Of a stretch of 64,000 bases of DNA, positions 11,034 through 46,339 are shown piece after piece; within the stretch, counting starts at the first letter, position 1, and each line of letters opens with the position of its first letter. The position numbers were made by a program, and so were the translations under genes. Where the stretch lies: assembly GCA_973895155.1 (NCBI GenBank), contig OZ316895.1:12895363-12959362 (forward strand). Direction: 5' to 3'. Below the pieces are notes generated by a model, which saw nothing but the letters and a program-made list of their open reading frames with translations, was not told the DNA's origin and ran no database searches. The stretch comes from Marsupella aquatica (Eukaryota; Plantae; Marchantiophyta).

Positions 11034-12022
11034 CGAGTTAAATCTATGTCAAGTTAATGTTCCCCCATTTTCCCGGGGTGCCGTACACTGCCCGTCCCAA
11101 TTCCCGATGTTGCTGCCTGCTCCAGTCCAAGTTTGGCAGAACATAACCAATACTCTATGATTTTACTCATGTGCTCCAGCCCAATTAACTTTGCACCATC
11201 GACTCCGAGTTTATGTTTTGGCACCCATCACTTTTTGTCGACTGCTCCGGCCCGATCGACTTTGTGCCATCAACTTTTTGGAAAGAAGTGTTGCCAAAAC
11301 ATAAACCACAATTGAATAGAGAATAAGTATTTGGCACAACATAAACCAAGGCTCTATCAATCATGACTCTCAGCCAAAGTATTAGGCTCCCCTTGAACAC
11401 TTACTCTATTACAAAATAGGTATGACTCCATTGGAAAGAAGTGTTGCCTGAACATAAACCGTGACTCCATCGAGAAGAAGAATTTTGCAAAACATCAATC
11501 AAGACTCTAGAATCATAACTCTTAACCAAAATACTAGGTTGTGCCTAAACACTTAGACTCTCTTACCATACCAGCATGACTCCCTTGGAAATAAATGTTG
11601 CCAAAACATTAATCACAACTCCATAGATAATAAGTATTTGGCACAACATAAACCAAGACTCTATAACCATGACTCTTAACCAAAGTACTAGGCTTGCCTT
11701 GAACACTTAGACTTTGTTACAAAGCAAGTATAACTTTGTTGGAAAGAAATGTTGCCAGAACATAAACCACGGCTCCACAAGGAAGAAGTTGATGACACAA
11801 ACTTTTGTCTGTAGTGTCGGAGCAAGCAAAGGTGTCAAAACATAAACCCAAAGTCAATGACGCAAAGTTGATTGGGTCAAAGCACGTGACAAAATGGTAG
11901 AGTATTGGTTTATGTTATGCCAAACCTGGGCCAGAGCGGGCAACAACATTGGGGATTGGGACGCGCAGTGTACGGCTCCCCGAGAAAGTGGGGGAGCATT
12001 AACTTGACGTAGATTTAACTCG
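11034..12022. mobile_element. Foldback/MITE-like element with long (about 200 bp) terminal inverted repeats and internal tandem repeats, copy 1
   Basis: Left end CGAGTTAAATCTATGTCAAGTTAATG...CCGTACACTGCCCGTCCCAAT is the reverse complement of right end ...CAGTGTACGG...CATTAACTTGACGTAGATTTAACTCG; the interior repeats a unit containing GGAAAGAAGTGTTGCC-AAACATAAACC about four times. Confidence 0.8.
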
Positions 12023-12053
12023 GGGTCTCACTTGTGTGAGTTCCTGCACTGCA

Positions 12054-12731
12054 AGTTAAATCTACGTCAAGTTAATGCGCCTTCACTTTCCCGGGGTGGC
12101 GTACACTGCCCATCCCAGCCCCTGATGTTGTTGCCCGCCCTGGCCTGAGTTTTCCAGAACATAAACCAATACTCTAACATTTGGTCGCCCACTCCTGCCC
12201 GATCAACTTTGTGCCATCGACCTCGGGTTTATGTTTTGGCACCCTTCACTTTTTGTCGGCCGCTTTGGCCCGATCGACTTGTGCCATCAACTTTTTGGAA
12301 AGAAGTGCTGCCAAAACATAAACCACAACTCCATAAAGAATAATTATTTTTGGATAACATAAACCAAGACTCTATTAATCATGATCTCATCCAAAGTATC
12401 AGGCTCCCCTTGAACACTATTTCATGATATAGATAATTATGTCTCCATTGGAAAGAAGTGTAGCCAGAATATAAACAACGACTCCACAAGGAAGAAATCG
12501 ATGACACAAAGTTGATCCGGCAAGAGTGGGCGACAAAAAGTTAAGGGTGCCAAAACATATAATAAACCCAAAGTCAATGGCACAAAGTTGATTGGGCGGC
12601 AAAATGTTAGAGTATTGGTTTATGTTCTGGCAAACTCGGGGCCGGAGCGGGCAGCAGCATTGGGGACTGGGACAGGCAGTGTACGGCACCCCGGGAAAGT
12701 AGGGGCGCATTAACATGACATAGATTTAACT
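12054..12731. mobile_element. Foldback/MITE-like element, copy 2 (fewer internal units)
   Basis: Same termini (AGTTAAATCTACGTCAAGTTAATG ... CATTAACATGACATAGATTTAACT), about 30 bp from copy 1. Confidence 0.8.
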
Positions 12732-15700
12732 CACGGTGTTCCTACAGGTCTCTCCCCCCTCCCCTGATTGCCTAAGGTCATCTTTAATATTTCTTTTGTT
12801 AATTCAAAGATCTCAATTATTTACCTACGGTCACCTTTAAGATTTCTTTCATGAACTTGATAGATTGATATATCTAATGGCTATAGAGACATCCTGCCAT
12901 TCTTATTTTGGTCTCCCCTTACCACTCCCCTTATTGCCTATGGTCACCTTCAACATTTGTTTTATGAATTCAAGGATCTTAATATAGCTACACCGTTCTA
13001 GCACTTTTCTGTTTTAACTTATTGAAAATGATGTAAAAACTATCTTATCATATCCTATTTGAGTTTATTAAAGTAATTATTTGAATTAAAAAACAGAAAT
13101 GAATTTATTGTGAAGAAAGAGAGGTGCATCAATCTAGGACAGTGTGCGTTGTACACTTGTACAGGCCATGGAATTATAAACATTTAAGTAATTTAAGTAA
13201 TAAATATCATGTCAGAAGTCTAATGTTTAGCACAACCACTAAGCACACTGGTGGTGGCCTTATGTGGGATCTGGTGGGTTCGGGGTTCGGGGTTCGAGCC
13301 CTGCAAGTAACAATTAGTTTTAGTCAAGATTATTTTTAAGGGTAAAATTATATAAGAATTGTGGAAAGGAGTACAAGTGCAAAAAAGGAAAACAAAGGAT
13401 TTTGAAATAACAAAGAAGATAAAGGGGGTCTGAGATAAATTCAAAACTGATGGAATAACAAAGAATACAGCACTCATAGGCCAAATTAAAATTAACATAA
13501 TTGCAAAACAAAAATGAACTAGGAAGACTGAAACAATCAGCAATGTGGGAAAAATAATAAGATCTTAATTATTCACTTGATTTACTGAGTGAGATATCTA
13601 AAGGCTATTAAGACATCCCACCTTTCTCACATTGCTATATGGCTATAAAGACATCCCACCTTTCTCATTACGGACCCCACTAGAGGTCCCTTCCAAAATT
13701 CCTGGCTCCACAATGCGCCACGTCATCATGACGCGCTGCAAACAGGTACAAATTGGTTTACAAAATAAAATGACTTTAACATTCGTATTTGCAGCAGGAT
13801 TTTGGTAAAATTGGGGACGCCATGCCATAAATCTTCATGTGAAAAGTAATAAAAAATAACTGTTTTATTTACCCTGAGTAGGCCCGCAACTCAGTTTTAT
13901 CTACCGCAAATAACCAACTGCCCACCCTTTTTTGTGAATTGTGGTTTCAATTCCACAATAAATAAGTAATTAAATGAAGCAACACAGCATGGCAGTTAAG
14001 AATTCCACATGGGCAGAAGGTAACCTCGTGTTTCCTCATTTCCTCGTGTCGTGCTTGAGGACAGAAGAAGTGGTGATGAGGTAATGGAATACTCATCTAA
14101 CCTTCCGAACAAGTGCAGAGAACTGTGCAAAGCAAGATTGACTCTCTCTTTTTCTCTTTCTTTAGCGGAAGGTCAAGTTCATCCGCACACGAGAGGCAGT
14201 CAGAAGAGCAATTCTCAGTCATGGCTAACAAACGATAGTCTCTCTTGAGGAAATCACTGTAGTCCTTAGTGAGAGCTCTGAAATTGTTGCTCGGAATTGA
14301 ATTTCAGAAATTGCTTCAATCTGCAAATGAATATCGAATCAAAAAATTTTGAGAGTAAGGGAATTCAGGAAGACGTCATTGCTCCTCACCTAAGATGGAG
14401 GCATTGACTGGACCATGAAGAGGTTGAGTACTCTTGCTCCACAACGATGCATGAGAAGCGAGGCAACTAATGATAGAGAGACAACTTTGGATTGAACTAA
14501 AGAGAGGAGGGGAGGGAAACACCAAAACTAGCCAGGATGTGATTGCGAAGGTGAAAGGATGAGAGCAATTGATCTCCAAGGATTCCAACAAGACTATGTG
14601 ATCCGCGATTTATACCTGAAATCCGCAACAGGTGGAAAGAATGATGTGAACGGAAGAATTGAATGTGAAGGGGTCCAATGAAGTCATGAGACACTGAAGT
14701 CTCAAACAACAATAATCAATGAAATGACAAAATGAGTGTCCGAGGTGACCAACAATGTGTTTCAATCTCAAAGTGACAGGACAGACCCAATATATGGTCA
14801 CCAAGTTCACGGGACTAAGTCACTGCTAAAGCAAATACTTCAACCACTCCACTTTCATAGTCAAGTGGGAGAACAGGGAGTGCGCTGAGACTATTAAACG
14901 CTCTGGTTAGAATCTTCCTTGCTTTGCCTGCCGCCCCTCGCTCTCTCTCTCATTGCTGACCCGGCTTTATATATGCTTTGAGTCTCTCCTGGACTTCTGG
15001 TAAAGAAACAATTCAAGGGTAACAATCTGCAGCTCGGCTACAAATTTATCGATGATACACTCATGAATTTTTGGGCAGCGAGCTCTGTTGAGAGATGCAA
15101 GAGTATGGCTATCTAAAAAATTAATAAATGGGCATCCTAGTCTTCACCGTGCCCAAGATCAGACAAGTACTGGAAGGCTCCGAGATGACACAATTTCAAT
15201 GGCCATGCTGCGATCCTCCCCTTACATAGGCTCCATTCATCTGAAAGTATGATCAATCGCGCAATCTAGCTACTCAGATAAGAATTATTCTTGAGGACTT
15301 GAAATCCCCTCGGCGCAAAATGAAACGCCTCTCAATCAACTCTGCCCACCACTGCTTGAAAAAAATGAATCCTTCTAGGCGTACAACAAATGCCCATTCT
15401 GTGGTAGCGTCGGTGTCCTGGTGGCAAAGTACCACGGTACAGTTCCCAGTAGTCAGAGCTGCTGTGACTACTAGAAAGTCTCCATCGTGAATCTGTCATG
15501 ACCAAACCTTGACAACTATGCTAAACACTAGACTTCCAATGAACAAAGTTTTGCGAACTGACCATATTGAGATAAAGTAATAACCTAGACAAGTCTATGG
15601 TTTAAATTGTGATGGCATCGTGGGTTCCACAGTGCCTCACACTAGATGCGTACAAGGTAATTGCGAACCAACTCTGGCCACCACCGCTACCTACCAGACA

Positions 15701-16384: not shown

Positions 16385-17604
16385 TTTCCATTTTCGTAAG
16401 CAGGTGATTCTCCAGAATGGACAGATACGATATTATTGTGGTTGATATAATTAATTCCTCAATATTATATTTACCTAACATTTCTTCATTATTTGAATGA
16501 CAAGGTTATACTCAAGAGGCTCAACTAGGACATTAAAGAAAGATGCACTGAATGCTATATGTCCATTGGTCAGACATTTGATCTATCAAAGAGACGTCTT
16601 TTTAATCAACTGCTTGTTACTTCTGAGATTTTTTACCATCTCTCGGCTGTGGCCGCTGTCACAGGCTCTACTCAAAAGCTTGTCACGTTAACCGGCGCCA
16701 GGGCTCTGTTCGAACCTGAGCGTATCCAAATTCTGAGAAGTAGGGATGTTAGGCTGGAATCCTTCTAAAGAAGGATTAATAGTGGACCTGTTTGGCTATG
16801 ATCTTTGGGGGTCCGTGGTACATGGACATTTATATAGACTTTTTACTCTGCTGGTCGGCCCCTATTTTCTGGTAGAGGGTTGTTGGTTTCTCTTGACATC
16901 TAATTGCCTTGTAATGACCCTTTTCTTCCCTTATGCCACTTGTGGTTTCTTTTGCCTTCCACTACAACACTACCGACCCCTTTTGCGAACCCCGTCCCAT
17001 CGCAACTAACAAAGGACCAAATTATGAAATTCCGGCGTTTGCGAAACACTACGCATCGCAACCCTTTCGCATTCTTTGAAACCCACAGCTTCGCAATCGG
17101 ACTTTCGCAACCCCTTCGCAACACCTTCGCACACTGCGAAACTTATTTTATCGCACATAAATCACATTTATGCGATCTCGACAGACTCTTTATCGGTTTG
17201 CGACGCGCTCTGAACTATAACTTATTTGCGAAGCTGTTGTCTTGACAATTCCGTTGCCATTCATATGGTATCGCATAACTGCGTCAGTCAGGGTGTCGCA
17301 CAATTGCGGAACCAAAAGTATCGCAATGTTCCAATACTCAATGTATGTCAAGTTTGCGATAGTATGGCATTCGCATGTGTTTCGCAAGGATAGTTTGAGG
17401 GCTGGGTTTTGTATATTTGGGTTCATAATTGGGTTGGGGTCTTATTGCTCCACATGAAGATACCAAAGCAAAACTTTATATATGCCAAAAATCCCTGAAT
17501 GTACAAAAATTAGGGTTTTCTAAAACCCTATGGGGTATCAAATACCAAGACACTGTCCTTTGACTAATCCATATGCCATATGGAGTGAACTACATCTGCA
17601 TCCT

Positions 17605-19650
17605 CTAGAATGGAGCCCGCCTACTCCTCTTTGCTGGCCTCTTCCCCTTGTCCTTCTTGCTTTGGGCGGGACGAGTTGGACGGGAGGGGGGTGGTGGTGG
17701 TGGTGGCGGTGGTGGTGGTGCCTGCTGCTCCTCCCCATCTGGCTCATCCTCATCATCGTCATCATCCTCATCATCATCCTCCTGGTCTCCTGGTATGCTA
17801 GGTGTGGCAGCACTCCCTGCCCCTCTGGACCCACTCGTGGTGGCCCCGGTAGTGTCCCCATCATCAGCGCCGCTATCCTCCTCACTGCTATCCTCACTCC
17901 CCTCCTGCTCCTCCTTATCCTGCTTCCATGTCACAAGGTTAATTCGGGTTTAGGGTTAATAGGAAAAATGTATAAACCTTATAAATGGAATGGGTGCGGG
18001 TTTAGAAAGGGTACTACAAATCACTCACACTAGCCAACTCTGCATCAACCAACTCAAAGAGTTGTCTGGCCCCATGCTCTGCCCCTATCTCCATCTCCTT
18101 TGTTGTTATCTTGCGGCGGTACCTCTTATACTACCACAAAAAAATGAAACACCAAAACATAAGGGGCCTGGGTTAGTAACTAAGGATACTTAAGCAAAAA
18201 AGGAATCCTAAAAAGGGTAAAAAGGGTACCCTAACCAGAAAAAAACCCCATTACCCTAACAAACATTTGTCACTCGACACTAAACGTTTTTCAAAATGAA
18301 ACAAGCTTTGCGAAACTCCCACCTTCGCAAATTCAAATATATTTAAGTTTGCGAAATAGACTGCGAATCGGATTGCTTCGCAATGGCTTTGCAAACCTTA
18401 CGGGAAAAAGGTTATAATAGAGTTTGCGAAACAATTGCGAGGCAACCCGCTTCGCAATTGTTTCGCAAACTGTGCTTTTAAAAAATTCCGAGAAATGGCT
18501 AAGGCACGCAATGTGTCAGGGTGACCTAAAACGAAAGGGGAGGCCATAAGGGGTAAAGCAGAGGTCTGCGAGGGGCATTGCAGGCAAGCAAACAACAATT
18601 GAAGGCGAAGGAAAAGAAGCAGGGGAGGAGGGGAGAGGACTCATGAAGGTTGCTTTCAGGCCGGGAAGTCCACCTTGCCCCATCTTGTGTGTGGTCTTGG
18701 GGCGTTTGCTGACTCGGTCTGCTGCAAGGATGAACTTCTGGGGTGGTGTCCCCACTTCATCCACGATGTGCTGCAGCTGAGAGACCTTCTCAGCCAATGC
18801 CTTGAGGTCTTGGTCTGACTTCCCGGCCTGAAGTGCCTTGGCCTCCTTCTCCTTCCAGAATTGGAGGTCCTTGGCTACTTTCAGCTGCACCTCGACCTTA
18901 TAGAACGCGTTCCACACATCCTCTGTGAATTGCACTGGCCTCCTCACGTTCCTGTACTCCTGCAAGCTTGCCAGGTAGGCCCTCACCTTCCTCCTATGAT
19001 GGTATCGTGCTTGAGACATTGAATTCGAAATTCTATCTGCAAGCCACTGGTCATCAATCTCTGCTCCATTTCTGAATGAATCTTTGACCTGAGTCATTAC
19101 TTTCCTCTGCTCTGCTCTGCTTAGTTTCCCCCACTCAACACCTCGTGCAAAGCTAGTCCTCACAGCAAGCCTGATAGTGCTCTTTGCCCCAGTGTGGGCC
19201 AACTCAGTAGGAATGCCCTCAACCAAGGCAATCAATGGCAGCTTCTTCCTCCTTTTTCCGCTGCGCCTCACGTTGTGCTCGAATCTCATCTCGTTCCTCC
19301 CTTCTCCTCTTCTTTTCGAGGGCTGCAGGAGAGAGTACTCCTGCCTTAGCCCTCTCCTCCTTCTTTCGTTTCTTCTCTCTGGCCTTCTCCTCAGCTGCAG
19401 CCTTTGCCTCTTTCTCCCTCTGAGCCTGCCCTGCTGCAACCCCGGTTTGCAAAGCTTGCCCTAGAATTGCACTCAAAGAAGCAATCCCAGCTGGTGTACT
19501 CAAATCCAAATGGCTCAACTGTGTGGCATTGAGATGCTCGGCCATCAAATTTGTCCATTGATTACTCTCCTCATTCCTGTTCCCTCCATTGCCATTGCCA
19601 CTCCCACTTGCCCCTGCCCCATCCCCTCCACGCCCTCCACAAGAATCCAT
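17605..19650 (-). pseudogene. CACTA ORF2/TnpA-like (Ptta/En/Spm-type) gene, frameshifted
   Basis: Charged coiled-coil N-terminus (19219-19650), frameshift near 19230, then RRPVQFTEDVWNAF and KRPKTTHKMGQGG (the H..G..G motif of Transposase_24-like proteins); distal exon with poly-D/E, poly-P and a basic NLS-like tail (17605-17934). Confidence 0.65.
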
Positions 19651-21005
19651 AGCTATCCAACACCAAGCGCGCGCAAGCTCTCCTCCTGCCCTCCCTCACT
19701 TCAAAAAACGTCGAATGGGCCTCGTAACCCGGCGGGAAGGTCCGAATGCCCAGACAAAACACATTTGCGACGCAGTCCGCATCGCAATTTGCGAATCAGC
19801 CCGCTTCGCAACTAGTATCTCAACTTTCCAAAACCAATGCGAAACCACACGCTTTGCAAAGCTGTAGAGACGCGAAAAAACGCTCTCGGGCTCTGTTTTT
19901 CCGAAGCTGTTGCGAAACATTTTGCTTCGCAAATAATGTGACCAAATTCTGAAGCAAGTTGCAAAGCAGGTCGGTTCTCAATATCGTGGCAATTCCTGGC
20001 GAATTTTTTTTTCACATTCTTTCCCTCCTCCTTTTGTTTAGGCCATGTAAGTTATACTATGCCCTTTTGTGTAATTAAGAAATTCCGCCGTTTCAAATCC
20101 CGGCGTTTGTTAGGGTTGGGTCTTGGATGAAGCTGGTTTTTTTAGGGGTTAAAAGCGAGATTACCAGTCAAACCTTCCGTTTTTTAAGCTATACATGGTG
20201 TGGGTGTAGGCTAATTTTGATAAGAGTTGGGTTTTGGTTTAAAATTAATAAGTGAGGAAAGGGTTTAGGATTAAGGTTGGGTTTGGGTTTAGGGTTTAAG
20301 TCTTTAATTTTGGGTTTAAGCAGGGTTTGCATTTATGGTTGTAGGCTTTTAGGGTTCAAGCAAGGGTTTAGGGTTTGAAACAAAAGAGAGGAAGGGGATT
20401 GGGAGTGAGGGTCTAGGTTTTTGTAATAGGTTAGAGGTTTGGGGGTGAGGGTTTGGAAAAGGCAAAGCAAGGTTAGATGAGATTAATGTTTTAGTTGTTT
20501 TACCATGGGTTTTATGGGTTTTAATGGGTTTTATGGATCTTTTGGGTTTTAATGGTTTTTCCATGGGTTTTATGCTAACAAAGGAGGAGGAGCTATGACA
20601 ACTTGCAGGGTGCGGCACTTTTGCATGAATTGATACTAGCTAATGCGTATGCATCGTGAGAGCCCGGGCATCTGGAGGTACGGACTAAAATAGATGGGTC
20701 TGGTTAGGCTTATTCATGTAATTAAAATTTTTGGTTCCCACTATCTATAAAGAGGACATGTATGTAAGGTGTTCGCTTTGTGTACTTGCAGCTTTTCTCA
20801 TACTTCCAGATTCGGTTCATTATTTTAGAGCCACAAGACCTATTGGCACCGCTGAGCCTGGGTCTCAGAAAGGTATTTTTTAGTGTTCCTTTTGTGTTTG
20901 GTTTCATGTCATCATTACTTGAGAACTTACATTTGTCCAGCTTGATATTGTGATGTTATTTGGTAATAACCCCTAACTTGCAAATTATACATCTTTGTAG
21001 GGGCA

Positions 21006-21243
21006 ATGTCTTCATCTTCTGAGATCTCCACCACAGATTCTTCCTCCTCCGATGAAGATATACCACCTCCTCCTCAACCTCACACGACTGCACCTCCTCC
21101 TCGTGGTCCACCCCGTCAGCTTTGCCAATGTGCCAAATGCATGCGTGGGTCAGGTTTCCCAAAAGTCCTATATATGCACCCAGCATATTGAGAGATATGG
21201 ACGTTACGGACGTCATACAACAGGGGCTTCCTCATCCCATGTG
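21006..21243 (+). pseudogene. CACTA transposase exon 1 (transposase-associated C-x-C-x2-C...H domain), one frameshift
   Basis: ATG at 21006; LCQCAKC in one frame and ICTQHIERYG in the next; ends CATGTG|GTAAGT, a phase-0 donor. Confidence 0.65.
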
Positions 21244-21344
21244 GTAAGTGTTTACGCCTTAGTTTCTACCCTATTTCCACATCGCAATGGTGAAGGTTTT
21301 TAATTTTACACCTCTTGTTGTTTGTTTTGGTTTGGGTGGAATAG

Positions 21345-22160
21345 GTATCTAGTAGGCCTAGACCTGCGGCATCAGCACCTTATGTCCCATCACAAGGTGT
21401 TCTAGATGCTATAGGCAATGCATTCTCACAAGCCTTGGGTCTAGCAACAGCCCCCTCCAGTCCTAGGGCAGTTGGGGGTGAGCCTGTTGTCCCAAGAGGG
21501 AGAAAGCGTTCCAAGAGACGGCCCTGAGGGGATACTGATTTGTACAAGGCAGTGGTTACCGGTAGGTGGGGTGATTGTGAGTTTATTGGCAGATGTGTTC
21601 CTATCATCAAGGACTGGGATCCCCAGACTCTTGGTTTGCCACAAGAGCTTTCCTATGGTGAGGAGGTAGAGGTTTGGGGAAGACGTTGGGTTATCAAACC
21701 TTCCACACTTGGGGATAGACATGGCTATGGAGTTTTTTCTTGTGAAGACATCATTGTGGATACTGAGAGTGGTAGTGGTGGACGCGGTCAAGAAGGACCT
21801 ACGTTGTTTCCTTATGGTGGACCCATCTACAAGAGAAGACATTGGAACATGATCCTTGCACAACATCCTGAGTGGAAGACTTATGCCTTGGAGTTAGATA
21901 CTTTTGATGGAAACACTAGGAGGTATAGTGCGCAGCGGGTGATAGATGGGGACCCCATACGAACTGGGAATATAGTTGGTTTCATAAACAGTATTGTGGG
22001 GACTCGCCCCAAGCGTAGGCAAAATTGTGAGTGGGTTTTCATTGAGGGTCCTCCACCAGCCCCTTATGGCCAGACATATCATCATGACCATTGTCTGGTT
22101 GTAGCTACTAGGACCATTCACTCAGGTGATGAGTTGTTTACTCACTATGTGTGGGATTAG
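21345..22160 (+). CDS. SET-domain (lysine methyltransferase-like) exon inside the CACTA element; one in-frame TGA at 21525 upstream of the domain
   Basis: IKPSTLGDRHGYGVFSCEDI (motif I), FPYGG, YALEL, IDGDPIRTGNIVGFINS..NC, VVATRTIHSGDELFTHY (SET C-terminal motif); preceded by basic RGRKRSKRR. Confidence 0.8.
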
Positions 22161-22303
22161 AAAATGACCATACACATGGCGTTTGGCCACATTTTGTATT
22201 TACACCAGTACCGATATTATTTCATGTTTGCACACCCCCATATATTCTTCTACATGTTGTAACTATTTGCTTTGTAACTTTCAATTGTTTGCATTGTTTT
22301 TAG

Positions 22304-25300
22304 AATGTGCGACCCTCTCAAAATATGTTACCGCGGAGATTGAGAGCAGCATATCGGGAAATGGGTATGCCAAAAGAAGGACAATGCTCTGAGTCACATT
22401 CCTCATCAAGTGACAGTGGAAGCAACAACCCTGATCGCAATGTACCCAGAACATATGAACAGGTTATTGATGACCAAGATAGAGCCATGGATGATTTTAT
22501 GGTTGATTGGTTTGGTGTTGACGTCCTTGGTGATGATGCTGAGGTGTCTGCTGATCAAGGAGGTCATGTGCCCCCCAATGATCCACGACCAAGACATACC
22601 CCCGAGGGACAGCGCCAATGGGAGGAAGCAGAGGAACATGCCCGAACTCCTATCTATGAGGGTGCTCGTTTGAGTCGTCTTTCTGCTATCTTGGGGTTGA
22701 TGAATCTACAGGCCAAACACAAGGCAAGCAATGCCTTGTTATCTGATATGTTTGCACTTCGCCATGATCTTATGTTACCTTCTGGCAATGTGTTGCCAGG
22801 AACTTGGAAGGAGGCCAAGCGTGTTCTCTCATCAATTGGCATGGAATATCATATCATTCATGCATGTGTGAATGATTGCATGTTATTTCATGGGGCCGAT
22901 GAGAAGAAGACACAGTGTACTGAATGTCATGAGCCACGGTATGACCCCAACATGATTACAAAGAAGGTGCCAAGAAAAACTGTTCGTTGGTTTCCCATCA
23001 TTCCTCGGTTGTTGCACATGTACAGGTGTTCTGATTTGGCAGAGTTGATGGTATGGCATAAGACTCATCGATCAGAGCCTGGTGTTATGCGGTTGCCAAT
23101 TGACTCTCCTGCAGTCAAACATATTGAGGAAACATGGCCAGACTTTGCACATGATCCTCGTCATGTGAGGTTGGGATTGGCATCTGATGGGGTTAGTCCT
23201 CATGCCCTTGGAGGCAAGGGAAGACCTACATCAGTTTGGCCTGTGGTTGTGATGAATTACAACTTTCCACCATGGCTATCCATGAAGAAGGGGTTCCTCT
23301 TGCTGTCTTTGATTATTCCAGGTCCAAAAAAGGTGAAGAACTTTGACACTTATTTGGCACTATTGATTGGAGAACTCCAAAAACTGTGGGGTGGAGTGTG
23401 GGCATATGATGGCAGGAAAAATACAGGAGGCATTCCACGTGTATTTAAATTGAGAGGGGTAGTTTGTTGGACAATGCATGACTATCCTGGTAAGATGACT
23501 TTTTGACCATATGCCACCCTTCTTTGATATGCTCTTTAATATACTTGTTTGTCATGTGACAACCCTAACATTTAGTCTGGTTTTATTTTTGGTGTAACCA
23601 GGGTTTGGCTTTGTCTCTGGATTGCAAACTCAGGGGTACAAAGCTTGCTCCACCTGTGGTCCACAATTGCAAGATATGGCAATTTGGTCCCCATGGCTTA
23701 GGAAGATTGTTTACATTGGGCATACAAAGTTTCTTCCGATGGGGCATGAGATGAGGTCTGACCCACTTTTATTTTCCTCCTTTGACATGCCCCTTGGTGA
23801 TATGTGGGAAATTCCGGAACCAACAACTTTTGGGCATTGGAAGTCACTAGCTGATAGGGTGGCAGACCCTGATGATCCCCTCACCTTTGATGGTACTGGG
23901 TTGACGAGGTGGAGTATACTAGCCAGTTTGCCCTATTGGTCAGAGTTGAAGATCCGCCATCTTTTAGACCCCATGCACATAGAGGGAAATGTGGGGAAGG
24001 CGTTGATAGCTCATTTTTATGGGGAGAAGGACACTAACTTCAGGGAGGCATGTGAAGAGTTGGAAATGCATCCAGATGTATGGGTACAAGTTGATCCTGC
24101 CACAGGTTTGGAACATCGTCCTTCTGCTCCTTGGGTGCTTAGTGTTGGCCAAAGACGTGAATTCCGGAATCATATAGGGGAGATGCGGTTTCCTATAGGC
24201 TATGGTGCCAATTTGAGGAAAGCTTTTGGGATGGAGGACAATCACAAATGGCCACGGTATCTCAAGACACATGACTATCACCGCTTATTGCAGCATATAT
24301 TGCCAGTGGCAATTATAGGGTTGGGGACCAAAGAAGTGCAAGATGCCATTTGGTCATTGGGTCGTTTGTTGAGATGGATATGCTCAAAGGAGATATATGT
24401 GGAAGAGATTCCTGGAATGGAGGTATTGGCTGCTGAGGTGGTTTGCAAGTTGGAGAAGGCCCTCCCTCCTTCCTTCTTTGATTGTCAGGTTCATTTACTT
24501 GTGCATCTTGTGAGGGAGGTTGCCATTGCTGGTCCAGTTCATTGTCGATGGATGTACTGGCTTGAGCGTTACATGTCATTCTTAAAGGCTTATGTACGTA
24601 ACCGTGCACGAGTGGAGGGAAGCATAGCTACAGGATACTTGGCTGTAGAGAGCATGTTTTATTGTAGTAACATCTTGGCCACCATTGATCGGACTTTACC
24701 ACGTACTTGGATGGAGGAGAGGCAAGAGGAGGAGGACCGTTTAACAGGACACTTCAGGTTTCACTAGTTCCTAACCTTGTTTTCCATATTCATGTACTAC
24801 TACTTAAGATATAGTAATCATTTTACTCTTAAGATATAGTAATCATTTTCTCTTTTGGTATGAAAGGTTCCTCATAACATGATTAGTGTTTTTTGTGTAG
24901 TAGTAACAATATATGGGTCTTGTTAATTTCAGGATTTCTTCCCTTGATAAGAAGAGGGCTCGTACTTTTGATTGTGGAGTTCAAGGGCAGTTTTGTCAGG
25001 ACTCCCGGAGTAGCCGACATGACAGGAACATTGTTCGTGATGTTGTGCCACACTATGGGAAGATAGAGGAGATTTTGGTGGTCTCATATGACAACCAATC
25101 TAAGTTTGAGGAGTATGTCTTCAAGTGCAAGTGGTTCAAAGTGAACCTTGTTGGTAATAATCGCATTGTACTCCAAGATGAGAGTGGGTTTACACGGTTG
25201 AGGACAAGTGCCACTAGTTTTCAAGCATCTCATTGGCAAACGTCAGAGCCATTTACTTTCCCATCTCACTTGGAGCAATGTTTCTACGTTCCATACCCCT

Positions 25301-25419
25301 TAGACCCAGAGTGGTCACTTGTCATCACATATGTGCCACGGTCTCGTTCCATTGTTTCAGACAAGCCAGACACTATTTTTGTGTCAGATGTAGAGGACAT
25401 TGAAGGTGACCAAGTGTGA
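22304..25419 (+). CDS. CACTA TNP2/TnpD-like DDE transposase (Transposase_21, DUF4218 and DUF4216 regions), probably internally deleted near 24750-24930
   Basis: IHACVNDCMLF, RWFPIIPRL, RLGLASDG, SVWPV, NFPPW, HDYPG (intron 23490-23601), LDPMHIEGNV, KTHDYH, HLLVHL, GPVHCRWMYWLERYM, FKCKWF, EPF...QCFYVPYP. Confidence 0.92.
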
Positions 25420-28162
25420 GAGACACTTATGGATATTTAAACCAAAAATCTATATCATGGATTGTTCATGTTGTTTCTTAATTAATATTTCATACACCAT
25501 TAGTGTGGTAGGTATTTTCATTTTGGACTCCTACTTTCAAAAGAGGTCATGCATATAAGTGACATGGGTACTCCCTCCCTTATCCCTCCTCCCTCTTTGA
25601 ACCCAAACTCTCCTTCCTCTTCCAAAAACTCCATAGCTTTTTCTCCTCCATCCCTCTTCGCTAAAGTCTCTCCTATTTTTAGTAAACCCTCTTTGGACTC
25701 CCTTCTTCCTCCGTCCCTCATCCACCTTCCAACTCCCTTCCTCCCTCTTTCACCTTTCACCTCCCTCCCTCCTCCTCCCCCATTCAAACTCTAACCTAGA
25801 TGCACACACAAGTCTAACATAAACATTTGTGAACTATTTGCGAAACTAAACAAATCCCAACCAAATCGCAATTCTGCCATTTAAACCGTTTCTCAATTAT
25901 TCCATACTATACGCTTCACTATTTTGCGATATCCAGACCATCCCACCTTTACCATCCACATCGTTTCGCACATTTGCCATACAAACCCATCGCAAATTGT
26001 TTGAAGCTAACCTTTTCGCAAACATCCTCCAATACTAATTGTTTCGCATCATTAATGTTACCGTGGTTTCGGACTTTTGGAGCGGTCGCGGAGCCTTCGT
26101 AATGTGTTTTGTAATCTCTGTAGTTTCGCAAAATATTGTGATACAATAAAGTTCCCAAAATGTTTGCGATGCAAATCGCATGGAAGACCAAAGTTGCGAT
26201 ACCACAAGTATCGCAAATTGCGATGCGTATTGAGTCATCAACGGTTTGAAGCATCTGGAATCGCAAACGTGTGTCCGGACGCAAATGAGCTTCGCAAAAG
26301 GGCAAAATATGTTGTAGTGAATTCTGGCCTGCTGGGTCCCCCATCAATGGGGTTCACGCGGAATAAACTACAATTCCAAACAAAAAAACACCTTTCCAAC
26401 GTGTATGGTTTATGGATTAACAGATGTCATTTAAATAGAGAGGCTCAAAGCTAGGGTGCTTCTCTTTCAACCACAAAGTACTGTACCCTTAAGGTAGATT
26501 GACCTATGTATTCAATTTAATGTACTTGCCTAGCACAAAAGTAGAGTACCTATAGTGCATATTATTCCTGGGATTATTCCATTTACTTCTCAGAATCATT
26601 GTCTCAATACATTTGAATAGGATAGAATACCTTCTATTTCAAAAACTAATTAAACTAACTAGTATGTGGGTCCAGCTCAATTCTTTTTTGAGTGGATCTT
26701 GCATTCAATAGAGTGTTGTGTATGGGCTAGATCACATTGTCAAAGTGCATTCAAAGGGGTGTTCTACATATGTAGGCTAGATCAGATTGCCAAAGTGCAT
26801 TGAAAGGAGCGTTATAAATCTGTAGTTTTAAATTCATGTGCATTAAATTTAATTTTGGTAAGAATGACATCTAAAGTTCATCTATAATAATAAGAGGATG
26901 CAACAAGAAAAATGATGGCTTGGATTGAATCAATAGTTGTAAATATCTATGATATTATCTTGGGCAACTTAGTTTGAAGATTCAATTTGTTAATACATGC
27001 TAATAAAACAAAATTCTCATCAATGTCCTAATGATCATGGCAAGTGGAAACAAAGACAAAAACCATAAAGTGTAGAATCATCATAGGTGTTGGAGAGAGA
27101 GGTCATATAGACCAACTTTCATGGGACTATGAACACTTGTTTTCTTGCATGATGTGTATTATGTAATCAATTGTACTTTATGATGTTATTTTGTCTTATT
27201 ATTAAATGTAGCTTTCTCTATTATGTAGAGATTATAACTAATAAACTGAACAAAAATAGGTTGGATAGGAGATTTAGTGATGTTGTGTCCAATATTAAGG
27301 GACTAATTTGTTGTGCTTGTGGAGGCTGATTGGAGGTTAAACTCATGACTCTTTTGGTGTGCCTAGGGTGATCATAGTGGGGTGTAACAACATACTTCAG
27401 GCTAGGTGGAAGTATGGTTTACAGGAGACATTCAAGCTTGGATGCGGACATCAAGTGGCAGAGTAATTTTTGTATGGCTCTCATCACGTGACCCAGGTAG
27501 GTTTGTAGCATTGCATGTTTTGTTTAATAATTACACTTTGTATGGATTTTATTAGTTGTGAAGTGGCCCAATGTCCTTTCAATTCAATGGTTGAGCCCCC
27601 CTCTTCACCCTTTCTTGAGATGAACATTTTACTCTTGGTTGCTAGACAAACTTGGGAGAGTTTACGAATTATTTTATAATCAATAGCAAGCTCAACTTTT
27701 TGACAACACTTGAAATACAGGTTTGCCTTCTTTCTCTTCTCTCCTTCTGGTAAGTGTGATTGCTAATATATTTTGTGATAAACCTATTTCAAACATTTGT
27801 TCAATTCCAAGATTTCACCTTAGTCCATTGGTTTGTGATAATTGTTTCTAGATAAAAGAAAGTGAAAAGTTCTAATTTGCAACATCTGATATTCAGATCT
27901 AAACTTAGTGAACTGTTTGACCTGAAAATTGGAGTTACATATTTTACTTGTAAATACTTTTTCAAATCTTGACAACTGAAAAGATGTAAATATTGATACT
28001 CTATCTAAGGAACTTTACTACAAAGAAAGGCATAAGAAGACTTTAGATTGAGAGTTATTTCCTTTTGAAATTTCTTTTCCATATAGAAATAGCAAAAGCA
28101 AGATCAACATTTGATACTACTCTTAACATAACATTGTCTTTACGTTAAAAATTAAGAAGATC

Positions 28163-29893: not shown

Positions 29894-32800
29894 TCAATTT
29901 TGGAACAATTGTGGCATTGTCAACCACGCTAGATCCTCTTCGGCCTGAGGAATGTCTTCCTCGCTCTCCTCATCCGTCTCCCCCTGTCCGTCTTCCTCTT
30001 CAATGTTATCTGCAAGGTTAAGGATCCTCCCTTTCAACACACTGCTCTGTCGCTCGTCAATCTCAATGGCAACGCAATGTCTCCCCATGGCCAAGGAGGA
30101 GGTTGTCCCAGTCCCTGATCTTGAACAAATATCCAAAACCCAGTCTCCAACCTGACTAAAATGACTCACTTCCCAATCTAACAATGCACGTGGTTTCTGA
30201 TAGACATTCATTGCCTTGTTATCCCCATTGTGTTTCAGCTTCTTAGTCACAGCTGCGCATACAACCACATTGTTCCTTGATTCATTTGTGTCAAAATTGA
30301 AGTGCTCCAATGACCGTTTACCATCCTGGCTGTGAAAGCCAATTGTAAAGCACTCAAAGTTGTTGTTCAATCTTGGCCCACCAGCATTCTTCACATTATC
30401 CTTAACCCTGAAAAGTCACAAAAAGTCAAGGAGTCATTTAAACTTAGAAACATGGTTCATGAAATCATGAACAACTAATAGTTGTTTTTTTCAAAAACAA
30501 ATATTTCTTAACACACACAATTCTGGAACCCTCCATTACACTCCGCTTTCAAAACGGTCTTGATGGCCTCATATTGGTCAAGGCTATGGTGAATGATAAT
30601 ACGCCACAACTTCGCAGTAGTAGCCACCTTGAACGATTGGACCATTTTTGTGATCTCCTCAATTCCCCATCCAATAGTGTCCTCATGAAGACATCCAGGC
30701 AATGCAAACCCGTAGGGAATATCCACTAAAGCTAATGTGTAAGCCCGACCCGGAACCACCTCGTGTAATCGCTGAGCATCATGAGTAAAAATATCATAGT
30801 GCACATCACCAAACTCTGGATGCTCAAACGAATTTGGATGAAGTTCCCCCTCTTGGGTTTGCCGACTAGAAGTTTTCATGGATAGCCAATTTTGCGCATG
30901 CACAATATGCGCATTGAATTTGTCCGGGAATGACTTGAGATCTCTGCCTTCCTCATCTCCCTTCTTTTTCCGGGAGGTGGTATCTTTCTACAAAAGGGAA
31001 CCTTACAATTAGAAACAAGGATTCCAAATATTAAATGAATTCAAACAATCATTCGAAGAAAGGTGACAGAATCTTACCCATGTTTGGAAAACAGGTACAA
31101 AATTCTTAAGCACATTGTCTGTGCAATGCTCGGGGTACTTGGTTTTACAACCTGACCAACTCTCGTGTAGACACGTGAGGAAGGCCTTCTGCACCTGCAT
31201 CTGAAATTTGTGTCGAGTAAATTCGTGACCCATTTCCTGTAAAGAGAGTTCTTTAGTAAGAACTCTCTGTAACACTGGGCAAATCATATCAGGATCGTTC
31301 AAGGCCTGCATGTGTCTCCACTCTATTAATTTCATGTCCTCATAAGGCAATTTGGCATCTCCAGACTTAGAGACTTTCTTCTTGCCCTTGTCTCCTTTTT
31401 GACCTTTGATCTCACACATCTCTCACTTGTCACAAATCTGCCTCACAAATGACCACACAGGATCTTGTCGGAATACCAACTGAAATAGGTTATCGTTGGC
31501 ATTAAGAACCTCAGCATCCTTTTGCACACCCCAATCCTTGAGATTGATTTCAGTAGCACACTCTTTCTTGAAATCCTGGTTGGACGACAATCCATTCTCC
31601 ACAAATCTCATGTGAATATAATTTACTCTCTGGATTGTCGTCATCTGTTGTCGAAATTCAGAATCAATATTGTGACTCCACGCCAGGTTTCTTGCCTCTT
31701 GCACACTCAATCCCGCAAATATCCAAGATTGCACTCTTCGAAATGCCTTGTTGTTAGGGAACTGAAGAGCAAGGTCTGCTTTGGCATAGGCTGAATGGTT
31801 GCCCCCAATCACATAATAATGGTAATCAGATTTCCTTGAAAAATCAAAGTCTTGCCTAGTAGCACACTCCTTCGGATCCACCAAGAGGACAAACGGAGTT
31901 GCAAGTGGACTGGCACCTACAGTCTTCATCCGCAAGGTCAATTGGGTCAAGAAATATGGTTGGATGTGTCGGACCTGGTAAATGGGCAAGCCCACAGCCT
32001 TCTCTCTCACTGGAGGGTAAAGTTGACCAATGTCATCGGTCACGGTCTCCTCTTGAACACCACATCTTCCCAGAATCTCCTCCTGGTACAATACCCGTGC
32101 ATCCATTGACATTGATTGAGCCTTTTGCTCCAAATGCGTTGGAATTTTCTCCAAAGTCTTCTTTTTTGACTTTGGAGCACTGGGCTCGGTAGGCTCAGGA
32201 GTCATAGCAGGTCGCTTCTTTGAAGAAGTGCGAGTTCCAGTCGAACCTTGTGCTGACCCACCAGTCAAAGCCGTTCCCTGGGATGATCTGCCAACTTGAG
32301 ATCCCCCTCCAGATGCTGCTGCTTCCCGGAAGGTTGTAGGCGCTACCACGGTCAAAATGTCATCGGGTAAAATGCTAGGCCTGGATCCAGAAGGAACATC
32401 GAAAGCCCCAGATTTGGGTGGACAACTTACCCCCTTCTCTGCCGACCTTTTCCAGAGAATCTCTCTCAATTTTTGGATTGCACTCTTTAAAGTGCTAGCG
32501 TGAAATTCGAACACAAAACCGGAAATCTTTCCCGCGATGTCGTGGTAACGTTCCTCACTCGAAAGAGACTTGACAGTCTCAATGATGCTATCAATGTCCT
32601 CATCGAGATAGCAGGTGGTAGCCGTTCCGGAAAACCTCTCCACATCCACGACAATCAAAGTTGACATTTCCTTCGTTGTGATCAACATGTTCACAACTAC
32701 GTCGCCCCGTCAAAATACATCGATGCGGCCGTAATTGACCCACCCTAATGCCCCCGATGGAAGCCCCTCAAATACACACAACATTAGGTAGGGCTTCTTC

Positions 32801-32904
32801 CATGTTTCCGTCCCTAAGGAAATTGTCCAGGATGAGTTGTGGAAGTCCGTCAAAGGATGGCGCAAAAAGATGTCATCCACTAGCTCTTCCTGCGACATTG
32901 TCAT
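29894..32904 (-). pseudogene. ParB-like domain plus beta-class N4-cytosine/N6-adenine DNA methyltransferase fusion, 3 exons, two in-frame stops
   Basis: One frame from 32904 to 31078 broken only by TGA at 32710 and 31423; YYVIGGNHSAYAK (ParB/Srx-like); intron 30988-31077; exon with LALVDIPYG (motif IV, cf. DPPY); intron about 30408-30511 with a damaged donor; last exon VKDN...YQKPRALL...SQVGDWVLDICSRSGTG...GRHCVAIEID (motifs X, I and II). Confidence 0.85.
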
Positions 32905-33683
32905 GTTTCCGCCTGATCTTCAAACCTGAGAACATACCACAAAATCAGTCCACTTCAACCCCAACCTGCGAGACAAAGTGCCACAGAACCAAAGAATGTG
33001 CCAACAAATGGCTACTAAAGCCGTGTCCTTACGGATCTAACAACGCTCTCGGCCACCCCAGGACTCCTATCATGAATTCATGAAGGGAGTCTCCCTCTCG
33101 CACCGACCTTCATGAATTCATGAAGGGAGTCTCCTCTCTCTTCACATGTACACCTCGGTGATGCAGAAGGGTATTAAAAATGGGGTTTGGAGGGAGGGTG
33201 AAGTGAAGAAATCACCCAAGGTCTAAATTACTACCTAAAACGGGGTCGAAATGAAGCGCAACCACGACAACTCGCGACACGTCGCCAATGAGTGCTGAAA
33301 ATGGCACAAAATTGGACAGCGAGATTGTTTTTCACTCTTTTACAAAGGAAATCCAAATGACATCGAGTGAAAATGAATGGGCTGCCCCATGTTCCTTGGT
33401 TATATATACTAATCACGGATCAGGCACAACTTAGTAAAATTAACCCCAAATCATGATAAATCAATGTTTTTGGGCCAATTATTCATGAATATTTTGGGGT
33501 ATTAATGGGAAAAGCTTGTAAATTTCATGAATATTTGATATTTTTGAAGTTAAGAAGTCCCAACAATCCGTGAAAAACTATAAATAGGCTCGTTTATTCA
33601 TGACTCTTGGTCATTTTTTTGAGGAGATTTGTTAGATTTTACTGATTTTCTGAGTTTCTTGTCAATTTGCACTAGTTTTTCCA

Positions 33684-36600
33684 ATGGCGGCATGTTATGA
33701 ATTAGATGATTATTCAGATGGAGTTTTTGATGATGTTTCATTGCCGGATGGCCCCTGCACAGTGGTTGGCCCAGATATCCCTGGAATAACTACTGTTTTA
33801 GATATGCCACCCCCCACCCCTATGAGCAAGTTAAAAAGTACTCGTTTACGACTTGCAATTAGTGGGAAGAAATCATTGGTCGGTGGTAAGGAGAGGTCAG
33901 GGAGCTCTTCTGACTCCTTGGAGAGTATTGGTCCCCCTGGACGTCAAGTTGTATCTCCTTTGTCACCAACAAAGGACAAATTGGGGAGCAATCTAGAAGG
34001 TTCAATGCCTATTCGGATGTCTGGGAAACGGTCTCATGAATTCATGAAGACTGGATTTGGAAAGACGAAGAAGGCACTAAGTGGGGCAAATGACGGAGAT
34101 TTTTGCAGTCTCCAAAGTGTTCAGCGGCTGAAGCAAATGCCAAAAAGTAAAACCTTTGGTAAGCCAACGTTGGAAACATTTCACAGGGGGATGAGGGAAG
34201 AAACTAGACGACCAGTGTTATTGAAAAGTATTCCAGAAAGGAATTCTAATGTGCGTTCCTCATTTTTACCTCGGAGTCATGGTGTTGGGGCAGGGAGCGG
34301 ATCAAGTCATGGAAACTCAAACAGGGAAACCAACCTGGTGGAGAGGGACCCTAGGAAAATATTGAAAGGGTCCCTACATGGTAATGGAGGGATTTCTGAA
34401 ATACGCCCAGGTATTCCAAGGCTGCATAGAGTGAAGGAAGAGCCTCCATCACCGAAGGCTGCAGGTCTGGAATCTCGGGATGTTCAGAAGAAAATGTTGG
34501 TGACCATTTCATCATCGAATGATAGCAAGTCTTCGGAGAGTGAGGAGGATGATGATGTTCCGGTGGCATCTAGTTGTTACAAACGTACAAGCAACGCCAC
34601 TTTGTGTGAAACAAAGTTGAAAGAGGAGGATATCAAGAAAACAAATAGTAAGTACTATTGTCAGAGTCATTGTCTCCTAAGTCTATCTCCAAAAGAAATT
34701 CGTGAGGCGCGTTCTAAACTTTTGAGGCAGAAATCTCAGGATCGATCTTTATCTTTGCAGTGGCTTATAAAGCGAGACGGAAATGAAGGAGGGAGACAGA
34801 CTATATCTTACACGTTTGGTCAAAAGAGTATTTAATTGTTGGAAAGCTTTCAAGCTTATATTTTGCGTTGGCAATCAGAGATTAAATAGAATTTTGAAAT
34901 TAGACAACCAAGACTTAGGATATTCTAAACCAGTTGGACGCCCTCCATCTGTTAAAAGATTAGTCTTGGTCAGTTGGCTTAGGTTGTTTTTTGAGACACG
35001 CGTGGAAACATTGCCAAATAAAGAAGTTTCACATTTACCAGATAATTATTCAAAGCTAGAGGTATGGAAGATCTACGACTCCAACTATGCCAAGATTGAT
35101 GAATCATCAAAAATATCCTATCGACAATTCTTGAAAGTTTGGGTTCAAGAATTTGGTCATGTGAAGATTCCTCCAGTCAATCGATTCAATGCTTGCGCGG
35201 ATTGCGAGGAGTTCAAATCAATTCGGGACAAAGTTGTCTCGGAGACCAAAAAGAGTAAGTTACTTACAAGTTTGACAAGTTTTTTGTTTCAAGAATATAG
35301 CTTAGCACATGATTTCTATTTTTTTTTAAGAAACTAACAAGTTGTTTTTCCAGGGCGAGGGGAAATTATGTTACAAAAACATAGAGACCAACAATCCAAA
35401 GAACGTGAGAAACTCGCGAAGCATCGTAAGAAATGTTTTTCAAATCCTGATAAATATTTTGGAGTTGTCATTGATGGGATGGATCAGAAGAAGACAAGGT
35501 TGCCTCATTGGCCGCGGCCCCCAAAATCGGTGGACGAAACATCCCGCGAAACATGTTTGATCCAAATGCACGTTGTCGGATGCCTGGTTTTCAATGGTGC
35601 ACTATTTTCAAGAGTGTTTCTTAATTATCCTGTATTGCATAATGATGGAAACTTGACAGTCACAATCCTGCAAAGGGTGTTTCACGAATGGGAAGAAAAG
35701 CCTGGTGGCTTGCCGCCTGTTCTCTATCTTCAACTTGATAATACCAGTAGAGAAAATAAAAATAATTTACTCTTTGCCTATCTTCATATGTTGATTCGAA
35801 GAAAGGTTTTTCGGAAAATCAAACTAGGATTCTTGTTGGTTGGACACACACACGACCAAATAGATCAAATGTTCAGTCGATTTTCTCCCTGGGCCCCCAG
35901 CCTTTGTAAACTAAAGAGGTATACGTGCGTACAACCCCCTCCCTAGTACCCCTTATTATTTTTGGAAGCCTATAAAAATTTCTCTTGTTATTCTTAAAAA
36001 CTTAATTTTGGAGAATAAATCTGTCCCTTTGAGATATTATAATTTCACATTTTACACCATTTATGAAAGCCTTGAAAAGTTATAAATTCATCATGTGCAA
36101 ACGGTTCTAAAACTGACGAGAGTGTTTTGGAAGGGTTTTGGGTACATACATTTTTGTGCTCGTGACCCTTTAACCCCAAACTTCAACTTTGGGGCATTTA
36201 TGAACCACAGGGCAAGGTGGTCAGGGTTCAAAAGCTCCAAAGTCCTAAACTACTATGAATCATAGATGTTGCAAGCATAATTATGTCATATACACATGTT
36301 CCAATAAAGGGTGGCCACAAGGACCAATCCTATTGTGACGCGTGTCACATCCATATTACATCACCTCTTGAAGCATATTAACTTGGGCGACATTTATATA
36401 AGCCTATATTAGTTAGAAAGGGTTCTTTGAATAAAACCATCCCTTGATATTTTTAAGCCAATTATAAAAATTAATCTCAAATCAGATTTTTTGCACCCTT
36501 CATCCGTTCGCACGTCCAGCCCATTATTAATGATGCTGGGGGCCCAGGGGATTTTCTAAATGACTAGCAAGGTTTAAGGCATTCACATACGAAAGCCTAT

Positions 36601-37769
36601 GTGATATTATTTGTGAATCATATCAACCCCAACCAAATATCACTCTTTTAAAGGAAACATATGATTTCCGTCAATATGCCTTCTCAGATCCACCTTTAGT
36701 CATTGAAAGGATTCGAAATGTTACCTTCCACCACCAGTACAAATTTGCATTTGACAAGTTGGAAGATCAAGTTCCAACCCAATGGGGGAAGAAGTTTTCC
36801 ACGGACTCAACTTGGAAACCTGACGGAGGCGTGAAATTTTTGAGGGAAGAGGAGCCAGAAAAGGTGATGGGTTGTGCTCCCGGATTAGCCCTTTTCAAAA
36901 AGGGGGATAAGAACGTTACAAGGACTCAACCAAATATGTCTAGTTCTTCAAGAATGACTTTGAAGGAGATGGATGATTCGTTAAATGAGATTCAAAAGGG
37001 AATACTTGCAGTTGAAACTTTATTCTCAGAAGAGGAAGTGAACTGGTGGAGAATGTTTTTTGAAGAGCAGCGGGAATTGAATAAATCCTTGCTCCTTGAT
37101 CAAAGACCATTTATTTTCCCTTTTCAATGGCCACGTTCCCAAGGGGAGATTGCTGTTGCTGCTGAAGTTCCCAGAGTCCTTGTCAATGAAGAGGAAATTG
37201 AAGAGAGAGTATACGGACCTACCAGAGATATATACGTGGGTTTTTATCGGAATCAAGGAAAGATAGATGCAGAGAAGGAGAATATGGAAGGAGACTTTTC
37301 GGATCTTGAAGTCAACACTTATATTTCTGTTGCTGGAGAAGAATCGGAAACTTTTTGGGTGGCCAAGGTGGAAAGAATTGACCAGCGCGACGAGTTCAAC
37401 ATTCCAAAAATGATTTATGTTTTATGGCATGCTGCAAAACCCGGGTCAGATCCTTGGAAAGCCAAGTACTTACTAGAAGTCTTAAACTACGAAAAGAAGA
37501 AAAGTGGTCGTGGGAAAGGAACTTTGAAACCAATGTGGTTTCACCAAGAGCTTGATTTATCTTCAACGACTGTTTTTGCTTACAACTTCATGTTGACAAA
37601 ATCTGATACATTGTACAAAAAGATAGTAGATCGAATCAAAATCCGATTGACTGAATTTTTGGCAGAAGAGAAAGAGCAAGAACAAGAGAATGGATCAGCT
37701 AGAACCCCGCTAGGAGATAAATCTAGGGATATTTTGTTTCAAGAATTGAGGACTTCTGGATCTGAGTAA
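33684..37769 (+). pseudogene. DUF7869/Sola-like DDE transposase, disrupted by a frameshift (about 34830), a MITE insertion and one stop
   Basis: CWKAFKLIF, CADC...H, intron 35255-35353, IDGMDQKKTRLPH, LYLQLDNTSRENKN, FLLVGHTHDQIDQMFSRFS. Removing the 35887-36557 insertion restores the frame (SK*LARFKAFTYESL...YDFRQY) into ORF 36759-37769. Confidence 0.8.
35887..36549. mobile_element. Non-autonomous TIR element (663 bp) with 8-bp TSD, inserted in the transposase
   Basis: Perfect 15-bp TIR CCCTGGGCCCCCAGC/GCTGGGGGCCCAGGG; TSD GATTTTCT at 35879-35886 and 36550-36557. Confidence 0.93.
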
Positions 37770-46063: not shown

Positions 46064-46339
46064 GGCGATCGAATGGAGGGAGGTCGGGACGGGCAAGAGA
46101 TGGGTACGTGAGTTCCAGTTCGAGCTCAAGGCCTGGCGATGGCGGCTGCAACCTCCTAACACCAAGCTCTCTGATACCAGTAGCTGCTTCGACCGAGCGA
46201 GGCGTCAAACGAATTCCTACCTGAGCAGAGGTAAGAATGAAACGGAATGAAACTCTCGGCCGGCAAGTCTGTACGCTGCGATTTAGACAATAAACCCCTA
46301 AAGTATCCTATATTCTTACTTTATTGAATATATTCTCGC

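Follow-up and report, generated by a model that had tools for sequence, protein, structure and literature searches.

PAG2, an accessory gene of red-algal Plavaka elements (EnSpm/CACTA superfamily), bears a SET domain, and modulation of chromatin has been proposed for it (bioRxiv 10.1101/2025.02.11.637652). SET genes also occur in HarbingerS and MuDR families of Phytophthora (as cited in PMC12730594) and in Helitrons (as cited in bioRxiv 10.1101/2025.02.11.637652). Maize En/Spm and Arabidopsis EN/SPM3/7 produce TnpA and TnpD from one alternatively spliced gene (PMC13547354), the term 'SET domain' being absent from the main text of that source. [quoted passage not shown] Here, we describe a CACTA element in a 64,000-nt stretch of the liverwort Marsupella aquatica (assembly GCA_973895155.1, contig OZ316895.1, positions 12,895,363 to 12,959,362, forward strand; hereafter the window) that carries a SET exon inside its transposase gene. 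We report the layout of this gene, its conservation and the selection acting on it, together with the SET fold of the product and the retention of most catalytic residues. With a probability of roughly 55%, we consider that purifying selection in this bryophyte CACTA family keeps the SET exon inside the transposase gene, where it would likely act as an alternative last exon, so that the gene would yield either a predicted methyltransferase or a transposase.

Conservation of the exon 1-SET-TNP2 order

The SET domain scores above the Pfam cut-off (24.5 versus 22.4 bits), is the only match of the family SET profile in the 64-kb window and lies upstream of Transposase_21, DUF4218 and DUF4216, all of which exceed their own cut-offs (Table 1). 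A search with SET gave 46 relatives among 115 candidates, the closest named ones coming from Calypogeia fissa (82%) and several Sphagnum species (∼70%), and a deep search yielded 92 representative proteins at 50% clustering, some of them from Riccia sorocarpa. One 90% cluster in Sphagnum comprises 360 member sequences, and intact gene models exist. SET was also found in 42 metagenome loci: the TNP2 exon lies within 260 nt of SET in 26 of the 29 that have at least 300 nt downstream, exon 1 is present in 18 of the 22 that have at least 450 nt upstream, and all seven exceptions to the layout are truncated SET matches. The exon 1-SET-TNP2 order is thus more than chance, as both the layout and the splice sites recur in divergent copies. 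In two gene models from Riccia, a divergent SET precedes a TNP2 with 41–49% identity to that of the window, which indicates that the SET-TNP2 pairing is old.

Within the family, the SET exon is conserved and evolves under purifying selection. The ratio of non-synonymous to synonymous substitution (dN/dS), taken for the window against 34 loci that each align over 100 codons or more, is 0.19–0.35 for SET (non-independent values) and 0.14–0.36 for the transposase exons, and between subfamilies SET remains at ∼0.25. The preliminary description had proposed looking for SET conserved at this position with dN/dS below 1, and this is what the loci display. Among close copies the ratio rises to 0.70 for SET and 0.65–0.71 for the transposase; values of ∼0.7 are the post-insertion decay expected of such copies. 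Identity at four-fold sites is the same for SET (30/62) and transposase (136/280, p = 1.0), and since these sites are equally diverged, the two parts have travelled together. Module swapping, considered in view of a SET dS of 0.7 versus 1.0–1.6, was rejected, as the gap in dS disappears at four-fold sites.

In a tree of 43 rows built on the SET stretch only, Calypogeia, Sphagnum and the window share a clade with support of 100/99, and three Riccia proteins fall outside it. The Calypogeia and Sphagnum SETs are 76% identical. Horizontal transfer between mosses and liverworts is possible as a lead only, and the position of Riccia could be explained by old paralogous lineages of the element. A scan of viral contigs with TNP2 found no relative. 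Six further, strongly diverged proteins (P0110 and P0125 of Calypogeia, P0114, P0118, P0104 and P0122) also fall in the SET clade; their N-terminal regions differ in some cases, and they may reside on other elements or be domesticated.

One first exon and two predicted acceptors

Exon 1 ends at a donor, GTG|GTAAGT after 21243, which fits in phase 0 to both AATAG|21345, in the SET frame, and TTTAG|22304, in the TNP2 frame (exon 1 is 238 nt, i.e. 3n+1, in the window copy). As the TAG of each acceptor is an in-frame stop, neither exon can be read from further upstream. The sequence check located these sites, the SET stop TAG at 22158–22160, the TGA at 21525 and the donor CTG|GTAAGA after 23489 exactly where the preliminary description had placed them, and its in-frame fit of one donor to two acceptors holds in the window, with sites that recur across loci. 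The donor GT is kept in 16 of 16 loci; AATAG is found at the SET acceptor in 14 of 16, and 24 of 26 retain AG at the TNP2 acceptor, the phase being 0 throughout. The SET stop is present in each of the 25 loci that allow it to be read. Identity is 0.57 in the intron and 0.54 in the spacer, compared with ∼0.49 for shuffles. Contigs, of DNA or unrecorded kind, from 8 of 13 runs join 21243 to neither 21345 nor 22304 among the rows listed, which speaks neither for nor against the predicted splicing.

The first Met of the window SET exon is residue 169 of 272, and the exon therefore needs exon 1. Gene models at NCBI, themselves predictions, join exon 1 to SET in both Calypogeia and Sphagnum. An mRNA joining exon 1 to SET is accordingly strongly favoured and, judged from sequence, very probable; one joining exon 1 to TNP2 is likely, though less secure, given a Met eight codons into the TNP2 exon. 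In one protein derived from Logan, P0056, a single frame contains both the Cys/His module and SET, which could stem from spliced RNA or from an intronless element. No donor scoring at least 3 was found between 21345 and 22303 in the window. Since neither the SET exon nor the spacer has a strong donor, SET would be an alternative last exon rather than a cassette exon, and the donor at 21244 is the nearest strong one for the acceptor at 22304. TGTAA-like words in the spacer are unconserved among loci, and no poly(A) signal is claimed.

Relatives of exon 1 match PF13963, a transposase-associated domain, weakly in four of six cases (E 0.0016–0.099), which suggests that a transposase gene acquired SET within its first intron.

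Predicted fold and active site of the SET protein

The structure prediction proposed in the preliminary description returned a SET fold, with a mean predicted local distance difference test score (pLDDT) of 91 and a predicted template modelling score of 0.86 from an alignment of 74 sequences; an earlier prediction from 29 close sequences had reached a pLDDT of 40. The top structural matches are all SET proteins. SETD8 is narrowly first in Foldseek, and Set1, EZH2, ASH1L, SET7/9, SETD8 and LegAS4 tie within 1 Z unit. Because the SET classes tie, the target lysine is unpredictable from the fold and the special likeness to SETD8 and viral SETs put forward previously is not borne out as specific. 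The model has an extra N-terminal hairpin region.

Most residues of the active site are strongly conserved in the aligned rows: in motif I, G66 in 66 of 70 and G68 in 69 of 70; Y101 in 72 of 72; N154 in 63 of 71; and in the C-terminal E-L-x-x-x-Y, E202 in 60 of 62 and the catalytic Y207 in 56 of 60. Position 96 (Tyr or Phe), N148 and N166 are likewise strongly conserved. The absence of His from the FINS sequence, raised as a caveat in the preliminary description, proves to be family-wide, yet as an objection it is weak. The best profile match in the PDB is LegAS4 (E 3e-6), in which the NH position reads YINFS and which is an active H3K14 methyltransferase (PMC10653858); as this enzyme is active without His, while keeping Arg, His is not strictly defining for SET enzymes. 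S-adenosylmethionine-dependent activity of the SET protein is the somewhat more probable case, and a histone substrate whose methylation benefits the element is a tentative proposal at slightly below even odds.

Proposed explanation and alternatives

We propose that one promoter and one first exon would feed two outcomes. Use of the proximal acceptor with termination in the spacer would give a protein of ∼350 residues composed of the Cys/His module, the linker and SET, a predicted protein-lysine methyltransferase, and passing over this acceptor in favour of the distal one would lead to the transposase. The spacer would have two roles, as 3′ untranslated and poly(A) region of the SET isoform and, in the transposase isoform, as the final part of the long intron, and the ratio of SET protein to transposase would be set by the choice of acceptor and poly(A) site. 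The SET protein would likely methylate lysines; it might do so on chromatin, might be aimed at the element and might relieve, rather than impose, silencing. A bolder version, in which an active histone methyltransferase of a new SET clade is made as a splice isoform of the transposase, the Cys/His exon steers it to copies of the element, its marks counter silencing, a switch in splicing weighs chromatin writing against transposition and the family has passed between mosses and liverworts, we consider unlikely as a whole.

Several observations weigh against the proposal. The metagenome loci were picked with a SET query, so that sister elements lacking SET could not appear, and they come mostly from one Sphagnum-like subfamily, plus L003, which leaves the 34 dN/dS values non-independent. 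The donor scores derive from an approximate weight matrix. The PF13963 matches of the exon 1 relatives lie under the curated cut-off, and two of the six relatives gave none. The family retains the Asn of motif III but reads G-[YF]-I-N-S throughout, with G151 in place of Arg and S155 in place of His; the canonical consensus is R-x-x-N-H. In RomA, Arg178 is counted among the active-site residues (PMC10653858), and a family without its equivalent may be a pseudo-enzyme. This last point leads to a somewhat unlikely alternative that shares the proposed layout and splicing, namely that SET is catalytically dead, acting as a reader or decoy, or methylates a target other than histones, for example the transposase of the element itself or a silencing factor of the host. 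The family-wide loss of both Arg and His speaks for it, as do the end of the protein three residues after Y207 with no post-SET segment, a fold that favours no histone-specific class of SET, and the need of RomA for extra domains to act on histones (PMC10653858). A dead enzyme fits poorly with the retention, down to ∼25% identity, of the catalytic Tyr, GxG, N154, E202 and, at position 96, the aromatic residue of the lysine channel; a non-histone substrate is still compatible with it.

The remaining alternatives concern the splicing and the origin of the exon. At codon 8 of the TNP2 exon, the window and all 26 loci listed have a Met from which the transposase could start independently of exon 1. 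Exon 1-SET would then be one gene and the transposase a separate product of its own transcript or of re-initiation, in keeping with the split-gene layouts among Arabidopsis EN/SPM families (PMC13547354). A search of longer exon 1-bearing proteins, in itself a weak one, gave a single candidate, a model joining exon 1 and a truncated SET to TNP2, and no direct exon 1-TNP2 model. We nevertheless regard two separate products as improbable: the AG at the start of the TNP2 exon is retained in nearly all loci, the stretch of seven codons that leads up to the Met preserves N-[VI]-R-P-S while changing at silent positions (14 of 21 nt are identical, compared with 9 of 21 just upstream), and exon 1 resembles a transposase-associated domain. 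SETMAR is a fusion of SET to a transposase, and the gene models P0091, P0116 and P0178 join SET, or part of it, to TNP2, as if the SET stop codon were spliced out. These three join at different places, however, and two cut SET short; with the invariant SET stop, the absence of a strong donor from the window SET exon and spacer, and a single weak donor in two Sphagnum-like loci that is out of phase, a fusion protein is very improbable. Neutral decay of a host gene fragment captured once would account for the frameshift and stop in the window copy and for the ratio of 0.70 in close copies, but the transposase shows the same rise, the ratio between subfamilies is low, the family has 92 representative proteins and a single-sequence search of the PDB matched no known SET; this explanation is refuted.

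Structure of the element and other features of the window

The element has terminal inverted repeats that start with CACTA, and contigs of other copies start at 16960 and stop at 26319, in agreement with its limits (Table 1). Its flanks differ (TTC at 16959, AAT at 26320), i.e. the window copy lacks a target-site duplication, perhaps through recombination between two copies or a subsequent change; L029, the one full-length relative, with a degraded 3′ end, is flanked by ACA on both sides as a target-site duplication. The second gene, on the minus strand, is 51–60% conserved among relatives, gave no match in a Pfam scan and is a TnpA-like candidate by position only. Pfam found no methylase domain among the scanned open reading frames (ORFs) of the element. 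At 21525, contigs of four of four runs read C (the depth of the other reading equals the whole depth), and near 21137 contigs of the same number of runs have four bases fewer than the window, one of the four possibly being the window's own sample. As these contigs contradict both lesions, the frameshift and the TGA, which the preliminary description had taken as defects of this copy, are decay of the window copy. With exon 1 and the linker both damaged, this copy would produce no intact version of either isoform.

Table 1. Coordinates of the CACTA element and its parts in the window.
Feature	Position	Strand	Remarks
Whole CACTA/EnSpm element	16960..26319	.	9360 bp; ends CACTACAAC..GTTGTAGTG, the first at 16960, the second ending at 26319
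Left terminal inverted repeat and subterminal TCGCA/TGCGA repeats	16960..17420	.	43 per kb versus ~1 per kb outside
Second gene, several ORFs	17605..19695	-	divergent orientation; kept in related copies; exon limits approximate
Exon 1	21006..21243	+	Ser-rich start, then C-x-C-x2-C...H module; frameshifted, 4 extra bases near 21137
Predicted intron GTAAGT..AATAG	21244..21344	+	101 nt
SET exon	21345..22160	+	low-complexity linker with basic stretch, TGA 21525, SET domain 21528-22157, stop TAG
Key residues of the SET domain			GxG 66-68, Y96, Y101, N154-S155, E202, Y207
U-rich spacer	22161..22303	+	143 nt; no strong donor; putative role
TNP2 transposase exon (Transposase_21)	22304..23489	+	open; in-frame ATG at 22325
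Phase-1 intron between transposase exons	23490-23601	+	
Next transposase exon (rest of Transposase_21, DUF4218)	23602..24767	+	3′ splice limit approximate
Last transposase exon (DUF4216)	24933..25419	+	5′ limit approximate
Right subterminal repeats and terminal inverted repeat	25780..26319	.	28 per kb

Elsewhere in the window, a second transposon-like block at 29894–37769 has minus-strand ORFs facing plus-strand ORFs with DUF7869; its minus strand includes an N6/N4 DNA methylase domain above the Pfam cut-off (29897–30415) and a segment that looks like ParB by eye, with no Pfam match. The block recalls the methylase/ParB accessory cassette of red-algal elements (bioRxiv 10.1101/2025.02.11.637652). 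Two long minus-strand ORFs at 39114–46204, one of 605 residues with a MACPF domain followed by a URGCP-like very large GTPase of 1566 residues, are possibly one immune-type gene. Malectin-like exons at 2919–4357 on the minus strand belong to a probable receptor kinase gene, and 11034–12738 holds tandem units of 153–154 nt with long, foldback-like inverted repeats (193-nt arms, 81%).

Comparison with known systems

CACTA elements account for 6.8% of the Sphagnum genome (PMC9946827), and transposon silencing in bryophytes proceeds partly via H3K27me3 (bioRxiv 10.1101/2022.10.24.513474), for which reason an element-encoded histone writer, if real, could matter genome-wide. For transposon SET genes, the cited work, in the parts available, proposes an effect on chromatin and demonstrates none; with intact gene models and a well-predicted fold, such an effect is testable in genetically tractable bryophytes. 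The family is also a warning that numerous 'SET genes' annotated in bryophytes are exons of transposons. A literature search conducted outside Repbase Reports, most subscription journals and supplements gave no SET in a land-plant CACTA element and no shared-exon layout, although supplements of the Bostrychia preprint may list more SET elements; PMC4158355, in its available part, adds nothing on mosses. SET cargo and alternative splicing of CACTA elements are already known, and what is new here is a CACTA lineage of land plants in which a distinct SET clade forms part of the transposase gene.

At the level of the protein, the predicted core fold of ∼125–135 residues resembles SETD8, SET7/9, LegAS4/RomA, ATXR5 and viral SETs (root-mean-square deviation 2.3–3.1 Å, Z 11–12), from which it differs in its low identity (17–26%), its additional N-terminal hairpin and its lack of a post-SET segment. 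Like Plavaka PAG2, the Marsupella element belongs to the EnSpm superfamily and has a SET domain; in PAG2, however, this domain is fused to an N6-adenine methylase in a separate gene of a three-gene cassette, whereas the bryophyte SET lies inside a TNP2-type gene of an element with no methylase among its scanned ORFs. HarbingerS, MuDR and Helitrons are likewise DNA transposons with histone methyltransferase-like SET cargo, but theirs are accessory genes in other superfamilies and hosts, and the bryophyte SET would share the first exon of the transposase. With VANC, to which the preliminary description had likened the SET isoform, there may be an analogy of purpose, the bryophyte protein being a candidate for an element-encoded chromatin regulator. 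As in En/Spm, one CACTA transcription unit is predicted to give the transposase and a second protein; in En/Spm that product is TnpA, whereas here it would be the SET protein, and the TnpA-like candidate is a separate, divergent gene that stands head to head with the transposase gene, in contrast to the tandem or single-gene layouts of Arabidopsis EN/SPM (PMC13547354).

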